A stretch of 44,354 nucleotides of DNA, from sequence record OZ035776.1, one strand, 5' to 3'. Below the pieces are notes generated by a model. The model did no database searches and was not told the origin of the DNA. It saw only the letters and a program-made list of their open reading frames with translations. Origin of the DNA: Vectrevirus LF31P3. Positions 9,430 to 10,510 of this stretch are shown here, one piece after another (position 1 is the stretch's first letter; every line of letters starts with the position of its first letter). A program made the position numbers and the translations under genes.

Positions 9430-9445
9430 CGCTCTTTAACAATTT
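9430..9445 (+). promoter_or_regulatory. boxA-like antitermination element 1 (cgctctttaacaattt)
   Basis: Identical to the rrn-type boxA core GCTCTTTAACAATTT; in early leader. Confidence 0.6.
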
Positions 9446-9501
9446 GCTTAGTGTAACCTATGTATGCCGTGGTTAATTACTTATTGAATGAGGAATTAAC
9501 T

Positions 9502-9597
9502 ATGAATTACGAAGAAATGTACGAAGTTTACTTTAACTCGACTGATGAGGGCGAAGAAGTCTTGTCTTATGCTGAGTTTGTGGAGGCTTTATCATGA
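9502..9597 (+). CDS. small acidic early ORF (31 aa)
   Basis: gagga before ATG; ATGA overlap with next ORF. Confidence 0.3.
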   Translation: MNYEEMYEVYFNSTDEGEEVLSYAEFVEALS

Positions 9598-9812
9598 TTC
9601 TGAATAACCGTGAATTGTCCATTCTCTTCACTCTGTTATGCTACATGATTCGTAACAACGAATTACTTACAGATGACGAGTTGGCACTGTATCACCGCTT
9701 TATTAACGAAGGTTGGACCGATACAGTTAATCAATACCGTAACATGATAGATGAGTTGAGGGGGGGGGGGTTAAATAATGTAGCAACTTGTGTTATTATT
9801 GGAAACAGCTAG
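9594..9812 (+). CDS. hypothetical early protein (C-terminus runs through the G11 tract and the duplicated unit)
   Basis: 72-aa ORF; the 3' end is probably altered by the homopolymer/duplication anomaly. Confidence 0.4.
   Translation: MILNNRELSILFTLLCYMIRNNELLTDDELALYHRFINEGWTDTVNQYRNMIDELRGGGLNNVATCVIIGNS
9760..9770. repeat. G11 homopolymer
   Basis: Eleven consecutive G read directly. Confidence 0.9.
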
Positions 9813-9885
9813 CGAAGAATTTCGCGTCCGTGATTATATGAGGCAAGCTGGTGTTGGGGTGGATTGGTATCACTATTTGATAGAT
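9773..9885 (+). repeat. unit A: diverged 113-bp duplicate of the 5' end of the downstream acidic-protein gene, with TAG at codon 2
   Basis: Manual alignment to 9983..10095 gives about 18 mismatches in 113 positions; begins aaataATGTAG versus aaataATGTAT in the intact copy. Confidence 0.8.
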
Positions 9886-9982
9886 CCCCCCCCCCCCCCC
9901 CCCCCCCCCCCCCCCCCCCCCCCCCCCCCCCCCCCCCCCCACCCCCCCCCCCCCCCCCCCGCCCCCCCCCCCCGCCCCCCCC
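9886..9982. repeat. poly-C tract (97 nt; interrupted at 9941 a, 9961 g, 9974 g)
   Basis: Read directly; the first uninterrupted run is 55 C. Confidence 0.9.
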
Positions 9983-9987
9983 AAATA

Positions 9988-10212
9988 ATGTATCAACATG
10001 AGGTATTCTTTGAATCAGCTAGCGAAGCTATTCGCTTCCGTGATGATATGATGCAAGCTGGTGTAGGCGTTGATGTGTATCACTATTTGATAGATTACGA
10101 CACTGAATATCACCGAGTTACCTTAGTATCTGAGTATGACAACCAAGTCGTTACTGAGTATCTAGGCAGTGAAGATTACGATTACGATGAAGTAATCACG
10201 ACAAATCTCTAA
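9988..10212 (+). CDS. small acidic early protein (74 aa, D/E/Y-rich)
   Basis: ATG at 9988; intact copy of the duplicated unit. The track ORF 9790..10212 would prepend a polyproline stretch translated from the C tract. Confidence 0.5.
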   Translation: MYQHEVFFESASEAIRFRDDMMQAGVGVDVYHYLIDYDTEYHRVTLVSEYDNQVVTEYLGSEDYDYDEVITTNL

Positions 10213-10220
10213 ATTAACTG

Positions 10221-10249
10221 TTGACAGCCACGGCATACAAGGTTACATT
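10221..10249 (+). promoter_or_regulatory. host sigma70-type early promoter (TTGACA-N17-TACATT), second copy
   Basis: Same architecture as 9252..9280. Confidence 0.55.
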
Positions 10250-10281
10250 AAGCATCAAGACGGCGACGTCTTTAAACATCC

Positions 10282-10297
10282 CGCTCTTTAACAATAT
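10282..10297 (+). promoter_or_regulatory. boxA-like element 2 (cgctctttaacaatat)
   Basis: Preceded by hairpin aagacg-GCGA-cgtctt (10257..10272, GNRA loop), i.e. boxB-like stem-loop then boxA. Confidence 0.6.
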
Positions 10298-10340
10298 GGT
10301 TTGTGTCTTGATAGGCTAACTAACTAACTAAGGTAATTAT

Positions 10341-10451
10341 CATGAAAGGTTTAATTTGTGTAGAACGTATGGTCAATGGTAAACTTGAAATATTACCACT
10401 GGAAAACCAATCTAGCTTCAAAGAGTGGTATGGCTGTTTCTCACTGATTTA
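10341..10451 (+). CDS. small early ORF (36 aa)
   Basis: Weak SD (aagg); between boxA elements. Confidence 0.3.
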
Positions 10452-10494
10452 AGGTAAAGGCTGGCACTAGTCAGCCTATCAAGGCGCAAACCAG

Positions 10495-10510
10495 GCTCTT
10501 TAACAATTTG
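10495..10510 (+). promoter_or_regulatory. boxA-like element 3 (ggctctttaacaattt)
   Basis: Preceded by hairpin aggctg-gcactagt-cagcct (10458..10477). Confidence 0.6.

Follow-up and report, generated by a model that had tools for sequence, protein, structure and literature searches.

Three boxA copies in the host-transcribed early region

The early region of Vectrevirus LF31P3 (sequence record OZ035776.1), analysed here in a window comprising the whole stretch of 44,354 bases, carries three copies of a sequence matching boxA, an element of the ribosomal RNA (rRNA, rrn) operons of Escherichia coli, located 3' of predicted host-type promoters and 5' of early genes including ocr. All features described below are on the + strand unless otherwise stated. 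The first copy (boxA1) occupies positions 9431–9445, with its 12-nucleotide (nt) core GCTCTTTAACAA at 9431–9442, whereas boxA2 and boxA3 are found at 10283–10297 and 10495–10509, respectively; copies 1 and 3 end in TTT and copy 2 in TAT, and the three of them are conserved in relatives. A search with GCTCTTTAACAATWT along both strands, allowing up to two mismatches, returned exactly these three sites in the 44,354 bases, all of them exact matches on the + strand, against a chance expectation of 0.25, and three matches were reached in none of 100 shuffled sequences. Because the leader boxA of rrnB in E. coli MG1655 reads TGCTCTTTAACAATTTATCA, copies 1 and 3 are identical to it at 15/15 positions and copy 2 at 14/15. 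The three copies also fit the boxA consensus GYTCTTTAANA, as given in PMC5725501, and the rrn sequence GCTCTTTAACAA.

The region around these copies matched 99 phage records at 80–99% identity, most of them Escherichia phages of the genus Vectrevirus, including K1E, K1-5, ACG-C91, and AAPEc6 (Autographiviridae, Molineuxvirinae, SP6 supergroup). The genome is circularly permuted within the window and, as position 9431 corresponds to position 710 of K1-5, its physical left end lies near 8.7 kb, which places the boxA region within the first 2 kb entering the cell. Two sigma70 promoters of the form TTGACA-17-TACATT, both with 10/12 consensus positions, were predicted at 9252–9280 (P1, with a homologous promoter in K1E, ACG-C91, and SP6) and at 10221–10249 (P2), and the same promoter scan found no third one that would serve boxA3. 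On the other hand, the scan for phage-type promoters detected none between 3896 and 11065, where the first SP6-like promoter downstream of the left end of the genome (TAGCTGACACTATAA, 11065–11079) marks the limit up to which transcription depends solely on the host RNA polymerase (RNAP); the three boxA copies thus fall within this host-only part. The gene ocr, a homologue of gene 0.3 with 69% identity to T7 gp0.3, spans 10603–10956, and the gene of the SP6-type single-subunit RNAP, annotated as RNA polymerase in relatives, spans 12387–15014. Eight nt past the stop codon of the latter, an intrinsic-terminator-like hairpin (AGGCCATTCC-TTCG-GGAGTGGCCT plus a T-run, 15022–15045) is probably the early terminator, marking the end of the early unit, and the next phage promoter is found at 15109.

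An earlier sequence-only reading of this DNA had described a boxA-like sequence occurring three times, had likened it to the boxA of the E. coli rRNA operons, and had located it downstream of host-type promoters and upstream of early genes such as ocr. The three claims are borne out by the data above, the promoters being predictions and the ends originally given for the copies being off by one base in places. Conservation in SP6-like relatives, which the same reading had put forward as a check, was also found. In 17 related loci from IMG/VR, retrieved via the RNAP gene, every early region contained two to three copies of boxA, always on the sense strand. The 12-nt core appears three times in K1-5 and in K1E, twice in SP6 along with a further copy bearing one mismatch, and once in T7. 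Within the 17 loci and the phages K1-5, K1E, SP6, and BP12B, which contain two to four copies per genome, the core was unchanged, or one base off in a few copies, whereas the 25 nt upstream of it diverged into several unrelated sequence types; alignment columns 1–12, which correspond to the boxA core, were invariant in 17/17 sequences. Such constancy of the core while its flanks diverge shows purifying selection on the 12-mer itself.

Presence of the core extends well beyond the SP6 group, with one to four copies in the early regions of T7, T3, K1F, K30, SP6, phD2B, PhiM1, MR4, and others, as well as of Peggy, Entb_48, an Edwardsiella phage, and a Klebsiella phage. When the boxA2–boxA3 segment was used as the query of a sensitive search, boxA and the block downstream of it were recovered together from 162 phage records, which include Pectobacterium PhiM1-like phages (Corkvirinae), Lelliottia phD2B (Tuodvirus), K30 (Przondovirus, Studiervirinae), and MR4 (Gajwadongvirus), in addition to Cronobacter, Enterobacter, Edwardsiella, and Klebsiella phages. 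An exact 15-mer scan of IMG/VR returned at least 120 loci, mostly unrelated, and was useful only as a negative control.

Duplexes, cassettes, and other features around the boxA copies

Each boxA is followed, after 1–4 nt, by the 5' strand of an RNA duplex, and a listing of the flanks showed that the sequence just 3' of each copy belongs to one of three conserved types. The 5' strand of the first duplex, stem a, lies at 9445–9474, starting 2–3 nt past the boxA1 core in the untranslated leader before gene 1, and pairs with a 3' strand at 10225–10255, about 780 nt apart, to form a helix of about 29 bp with one bulge and an energy of −47.6 kcal/mol (RNAduplex). It encloses the small early genes at 9502–10212, the first ATG (gene 1) being at 9502. 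The 3' strand coincides with P2, running from just past the −35 box through the spacer and the −10 box to around +1, and in this way a single sequence is at the same time promoter DNA and one strand of an RNA duplex; compensatory changes are present in the spacer of this promoter.

Stem b follows boxA2, with its 5' strand at 10297–10322 (core 10297–10317) and its partner about 175 nt downstream, at 10467–10494 (core 10473–10493), ending 1 nt before boxA3. It comprises 21 bp, some of them G-U, with an energy of −40.6 kcal/mol (RNAduplex), and encloses a single 36-codon open reading frame (ORF) at 10342–10452. After boxA3 there is a local hairpin with an internal loop, hairpin c (10518–10593, −31 kcal/mol, z = −4.4), of the type of R0.3 in T7, situated directly 5' of the Shine–Dalgarno sequence of ocr and kept across relatives via compensatory changes in its upper stem. 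Both the minimum free energy (MFE) and the centroid folds of 10255–10605 contain stem b and hairpin c (z = −4.7). The strands of the stems are all located in untranslated gaps that bracket the ORFs. The length of double-stranded RNA found at RNase III sites (~20 bp or more, intergenic) is reached by hairpin c, and by stems a and b too, although these are long-range structures. We also observed that the sequence CTAACTAACTAA, which contains TAA stops in all three frames, precedes a Shine–Dalgarno sequence at 10318–10341 and again at 10583–10602, that is, after the 5' strand of stem b and after hairpin c, an arrangement conserved in relatives.

The strength of these duplexes was compared with that of 2124 32-mers taken genome-wide, for each of which the best duplex energy against the next 1.5 kb was recorded. 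The control energies had a mean of −23.9 (standard deviation 4.1) and a first percentile of −34.4. Stem a was below all 2124 windows, and only two windows, besides one overlapping stem a itself, reached the energy of stem b. Among the matches listed for the viral contigs retrieved only by the 15-mer, which comprised 130 matches to the boxA core, 115, in unrelated contigs, had no partner below −29.9 (mean −19.5), and the 11 strong cases all corresponded to contigs with the same modules of boxA and stem, mostly relatives of the SP6 group. Pairing was, in addition, maintained by covariation. For stem b, the alignment held 17 distinct sequences representing five or more genera; 95.8% of the cells were paired and 8/21 pairs were compensatory, a level that 0/500 shuffles attained, while structures slid by 1–3 columns paired only 24–45%. 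For stem a, in 11 sequences, the corresponding figures were 94.6% and 11/30, again with 0/500 shuffles as high and with 22–37% pairing in the slid controls. MAFFT mis-registered three divergent rows in the alignment of stem a, which can only lower its pairing figures. Taken together, the control energies and the covariation indicate that the RNA duplexes are real, selected structures.

The control scan also gave strong duplex scores at 40.3–40.6 kb and at 8.5 kb. No inverted repeats were found at 40.2–42.3 kb, and the score at 8.5 kb reflects, we think, pairing with a homopolymer run. A further candidate ("stem 0"), pairing 9015–9041 with 9268–9294 in the −10 region of P1 with 74% complementarity and −31 kcal/mol, was rejected, as it was weak and full of interior loops, was inconsistent in relatives, and lacked a boxA.

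Upstream of the boxA copies the picture was different. The sequence-only reading had noted short hairpins before copies 2 and 3, one of them with a GNRA loop, and had proposed from them the order of rrn operons, with a boxB-like hairpin and then boxA. Both hairpins can indeed be read in the sequence, and the GNRA loop is present, but the one before copy 3 did not appear in the MFE fold. The first of them, a 6-bp hairpin with a GCGA loop (AAGACG-GCGA-CGUCUU, 10257–10272), is contained in the MFE and centroid folds and lies where transcripts from P2 are predicted to begin, 10 nt upstream of boxA2. It is kept in K1-5, K1E, and ACG-C91, and unrelated sequence takes its place in the loci L131, L136, and L132–135. 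It could be a stabiliser of the 5' end or a dispensable analogue of boxB; the boxB of rrn operons has been reported to be dispensable (PMC8632103). The second one (GGCUGGC-ACUA-GUCAGCC, 10460–10477) shares bases with the 3' strand of stem b, which it slightly precedes, and the long-range stem wins over it in the MFE fold. This small hairpin lies inside the stem b cassette, separated from boxA3 by that same 3' strand. Its equivalents are kept in relatives as GCUGGC-loop-GCYRGC, often with GNRA-type loops, or with the ACUA loop, for which reason it is probably functional as part of the 3' end of the cassette. Before boxA1, folding revealed no significant structure (z = +1.2). For the proposed order of boxB-like hairpin and boxA there is thus little support, with the hairpin of copy 2 missing in several close relatives, that of copy 3 split off by a stem strand, and none at copy 1: support for an rrn-like order is weak on the 5' side of boxA and strong on its 3' side.

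Relatives differ in the number of units that boxA and the stems delimit. Two boxA copies and no b cassette, the junction falling exactly at boxA, were found in the loci L128 (~4176), L141 (~4415), and L151/CrRp3 (2569), whereas in K1E (1663–2250) the b cassette is present twice, along with a degenerate boxA as fourth copy, GCTCTTTTAACAA. The ORFs inside b-type stems encode unrelated small proteins of 36–82 amino acids in different phages, and that of the cassette of K30 (Studiervirinae; 668–950) is annotated in its record as similar to gp2.8 of K1E. The varying number of cassettes, with boxA as their exact joint, indicates that the conserved joints mark the boundaries of exchangeable early-gene cassettes; we regard this exchange as a consequence of the repeats and not as the reason for their conservation. 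A comparable arrangement was detected in an unclassified IMG/VR contig, L109 (− strand, positions 5804 and 6108 of the reverse complement), where two boxA copies are each followed by a long-range stem, of −44.9 and −37.8 kcal/mol, unrelated in sequence to the other stems. The architecture thus extends beyond the sequence-similar group. In the neighbouring genes of this contig, Pfam identified only a DUF.

Several other features were observed in the early region. Directly after the phage-type promoter at 11065 there is a long hairpin (11071–11142), which may be an RNase III site or the 5' stem-loop of transcripts of the phage RNAP; Rfam matches to miRNA families at this hairpin, on both strands, were judged spurious, and the Rfam scan of 8400–12400 (E ≤ 1) gave no family for boxA or the stems. 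A dense array of CTTAGT/CCTTAGT repeats occupies 8880–9250, between a GC-rich putative terminal-repeat region (8520–8880) and P1, and resembles the short repeats near the left end of T7. Finally, the segment 9760–9983, between boxA1 and boxA2, contains a run of 11 G (9760–9770) and a tract of some 98 nt consisting almost wholly of C (9886–9983, including runs of 55, 19, and 12). These flank a degraded duplicate about 113 nt long, with positions 955–1067 of K1-5 being matched twice (at 88.7% by 9603–9885 and at 99.6% by 9983–10260). Homopolymers longer than 10 are absent from relatives, unlike in this segment, which in all likelihood is an artefact of sequencing or assembly that adds about 220 nt to the distance between both boxA copies.

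Possible roles of the boxA modules

It is likely, in our view, that the three sequences are rrn-type boxA elements homologous to that of T7, that each one heads a module of boxA plus duplex copying the layout of the rRNA operons, and that they work through the mechanism outlined here. Judging from T7 genetics and rrn biochemistry, NusB–NusE (S10) would bind each boxA and nucleate a Nus/SuhB elongation complex on the E. coli RNAP. The polymerase so modified would be fast and resistant to Rho across a leader made of short ORFs and long, structured, untranslated spacers. In T7, transcription by the host RNAP helps to pull the genome into the cell, and in the phage analysed here both early transcription and the genome entry driven by it would in this manner reach ocr and the RNAP gene. 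Following the model proposed for rrn operons, a boxA kept fixed at the exit channel of the polymerase would retain the adjoining 5' strand until the 3' strand emerges, favouring the formation of duplexes with strands 175–780 nt apart. Host RNase III would then cut these duplexes, as suggested by their length and by the sites known in T7 and T3, and would convert the polycistronic RNA into discrete mRNAs. After cleavage at stem a, the 5' end of the downstream RNA would be next to the start of P2, in such a way that the RNAs derived from P1 and P2 would converge on similar mature mRNAs, each starting with boxA2. Either the cut or re-initiation at P2 would strip the upstream boxA from the nascent RNA, and a fresh boxA would be available after each 3' strand. 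If the upstream boxA is indeed removed by cleavage or re-initiation, the presence of three copies would be explained, as are the leader and spacer copies of rrn operons.

Several points weigh against this mechanism. The complexes of rrn type act mainly on Rho-dependent termination, and there is no demonstrated Rho terminator in this leader. Nus factors may not be needed for a duplex of 20–29 bp to form and be cleaved. In several more distant phages (PhiM1, Peggy, and Entb_48), no further boxA follows the last cassette, so "reloading" is not universal. P1 and P2 are consensus predictions from a sigma70 promoter scan that, overall, was not enriched over shuffled sequences. In addition, the boxA complex of suhB promotes Rho termination (PMC5725501), and the sign of the effect can therefore not be assumed.

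The adjacency of boxA and stems could also be incidental, boxA providing plain antitermination as in T7, the stems being independent RNase III or mRNA-stabilising structures, and the spacers between genes being merely the place where every regulatory signal is kept. This would agree with T7, T3, and K1F, in which a single boxA with a local hairpin 20–30 nt further on requires no long-range delivery, and with duplexes strong enough to form unaided. We find such independence plausible but unlikely, because nearly all long-range modules, in different subfamilies, have 1–4 nt between boxA and the 5' strand, and the same spacing is found with stems of unrelated sequence, as in L109, in line with the gap-free arrangement of rrnB. 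The tight and conserved juxtaposition of boxA and stem, together with the rrn precedent, favours coupling over independent elements. Another role, in translational or Rho-promoting control, is suggested by the repression of suhB through its boxA and by the widespread boxA regulation outside rrn proposed in PMC5725501: the Nus complex would loop the RNA and occlude the Shine–Dalgarno sequence, damping or timing the expression of the small early ORFs, whose start codons lie ~45–110 nt downstream of the boxA copies. A role of this kind seems very improbable here, since the T7 genetics summarised in PMC3709561 point to antitermination, the element adjoining boxA is the 5' strand of a stem and not a Shine–Dalgarno sequence, and the triple-frame stop and strong Shine–Dalgarno sequence after each stem suggest that efficient translation is wanted.

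The 12-mers and the stem halves could, alternatively, be kept at the DNA level as recombination joints for the gain and loss of cassettes, with no function in the RNA. Relatives with two copies (L128, L141/CrRp3), which lack the b cassette and have boxA at the exact junction, the extra cassette of K1E, the unrelated cargo ORFs of different phages, and the annotated similarity of the K30 cassette ORF to gp2.8 of K1E would all fit such a role. We give it hardly any weight in view of the strict strand specificity, the identity with the boxA of host rrn operons, the compensatory substitutions by which RNA pairs, G-U among them, are maintained, and the genetics of T7. As for matches by chance or composition without any function, the motif is short, and nothing else speaks for them; their probability is practically nil, and they are refuted by the absence of three matches in 100 shuffles and by a core that is near-constant amid diverged flanks in dozens of genomes.

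Going beyond the likely reading of rrn-type boxA modules, we tentatively entertain the possibility, on which we would not yet rely, that the host-transcribed early region of the SP6 group and of several other enterobacterial Autographiviridae is a mimic of an rRNA operon in which the Nus/SuhB complex also serves as an RNA chaperone. Its unit would be a cassette consisting of boxA, the 5' strand, the triple-frame stop and Shine–Dalgarno sequence, a small variable ORF, the 3' strand, and the next boxA. If this were true, the 5' strand would be held at the exit channel, duplexes spanning up to ~800 nt would form co-transcriptionally and be cut by RNase III, and cassettes would be swapped between phage subfamilies at the conserved joints. 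These phages would then provide a compact mRNA model, amenable to genetics, of the "delivery" function long ascribed to the rrn antitermination complex. In rrn operons, the tethering by boxA is hard to separate from ribosome assembly; should the Nus complex aid the stems, the phage leader, which is small, dispensable, and a few hundred nt long, could be used to examine whether boxA tethering brings the 5' strand of an RNase III stem to its distant partner. The finding of boxA alone extends the T7 element to a phage of the K1E/K1-5 type and is of modest interest, the architecture being the stronger point. The K1-5, K1E, and SP6 records examined carry no annotation of the boxA and stem signals or of the promoters, and the boundaries of the modules may serve as natural insertion points for early payloads in K1- and K5-specific therapeutic phages.

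Comparison with known systems

According to PMC3709561, which cites Savalia et al. (2010), the boxA of T7 acts in anti-termination, and Gp2 is no longer required once this element is mutated. Its core is located at 813–824, 3' of promoter A3 (+1 at 750) and 5' of gene 0.3, and shares with the copies found here both the identical 12-nt sequence GCTCTTTAACAA and the position after strong host promoters and before an RNase III-type hairpin and ocr. The sequence-only reading had left open whether such an element was already described in this phage group. It is for T7, and the action of boxA on the host RNAP during early transcription is thus a described and genetically supported feature of this phage family, which makes the earlier proposal reasonable but not new in kind. 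For the SP6-like phages no report was found: a literature search that did not cover the original SP6 and K1-5 genome papers found no combination of boxA with SP6, K1-5, K1E, Vectrevirus, or Autographiviridae. Those original papers aside, we found no description of multiple boxA copies with covarying long-range stems, an rrn-like layout, and cassettes; there is real uncertainty about the novelty of this point, as key primary papers lie outside the literature covered.

The phage described here differs from T7, T3, and K1F in having three boxA copies instead of one with a nearby local hairpin. Unlike in T7, two of its copies are coupled to gene-enclosing long-range duplexes (~175 and ~780 nt), one strand of which doubles as a promoter. 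In the T3 record, the R0.3 stem-loop is annotated at 822–875, with boxA at 781, and the sequence TCTGGAT after the core is common to T3 and K1F. Hairpin c resembles the RNase III sites of T7 and T3 (R0.3, R0.5, and R1) in its intergenic location, its internal loop, and the position of R0.3 before ocr, but these sites are local hairpins, whereas the strands of stems a and b are 175–780 nt apart.

The closest layout is that of the rRNA operons, where, as in the phage, boxA is followed by a 5' strand, a cargo, a 3' strand, and the next boxA. In rrnB, the boxA core (1217–1228 of sequence L005) is followed without any gap by a 43-nt segment that pairs, at −57.9 kcal/mol, with a sequence starting 5 nt past the 3' end of the 16S gene, forming the RNase III processing stem of 16S rRNA, and a second boxA is present in the spacer before 23S. 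Stems a and b share with this boxC-type element a 5' strand placed after boxA and long-range pairing around a cargo. The boxA3 copy with its linker (GCTCTTTAACAATTTGGATAAAGCT) is identical to the boxA region of the rrnB spacer (GCTCTTTAAAAATCTGGATCAAGCT) at 22/25 positions. The cargo and the length of the duplex differ, rRNA and ~43 in the operons compared to small ORFs and 21–29 bp in the phage, and, unlike in rrn, there is no consistent boxB hairpin upstream of the phage copies. In the rrn complex, NusB–NusE sits on boxA and NusA/SuhB on the linker between boxA and boxC, with the nut-like element fixed at the exit channel, a topology by which boxC is "delivered" to the complementary sequence 3' of 16S, so that the RNase III site is formed (PMC8632103).

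In nutL and nutR of lambda, the sites of N-dependent antitermination, a boxA bound by NusB–NusE likewise serves to modify the host RNAP on early transcripts, as would be the case here. The boxA of lambda is a shorter and weaker variant (CGCUCUUA) that needs a downstream boxB hairpin and the phage N protein, whereas the copies described here have the full rrn consensus. No lambda-type boxB hairpin is conserved after them, the strand of a duplex being found in its place (no search for an N-like protein was made). The 5'-untranslated region of suhB (Baniulyte et al. 2017) provides a further non-rRNA boxA in an mRNA leader, likewise fitting GYTCTTTAANA and involved in autoregulation by Nus factors, where the Nus complex held at boxA acts as a repressor of translation and favours termination by Rho (PMC5725501). 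In comparison with suhB, the context of the phage copies, with the genetics of T7 and the rrn-like stems, points to antitermination and processing.

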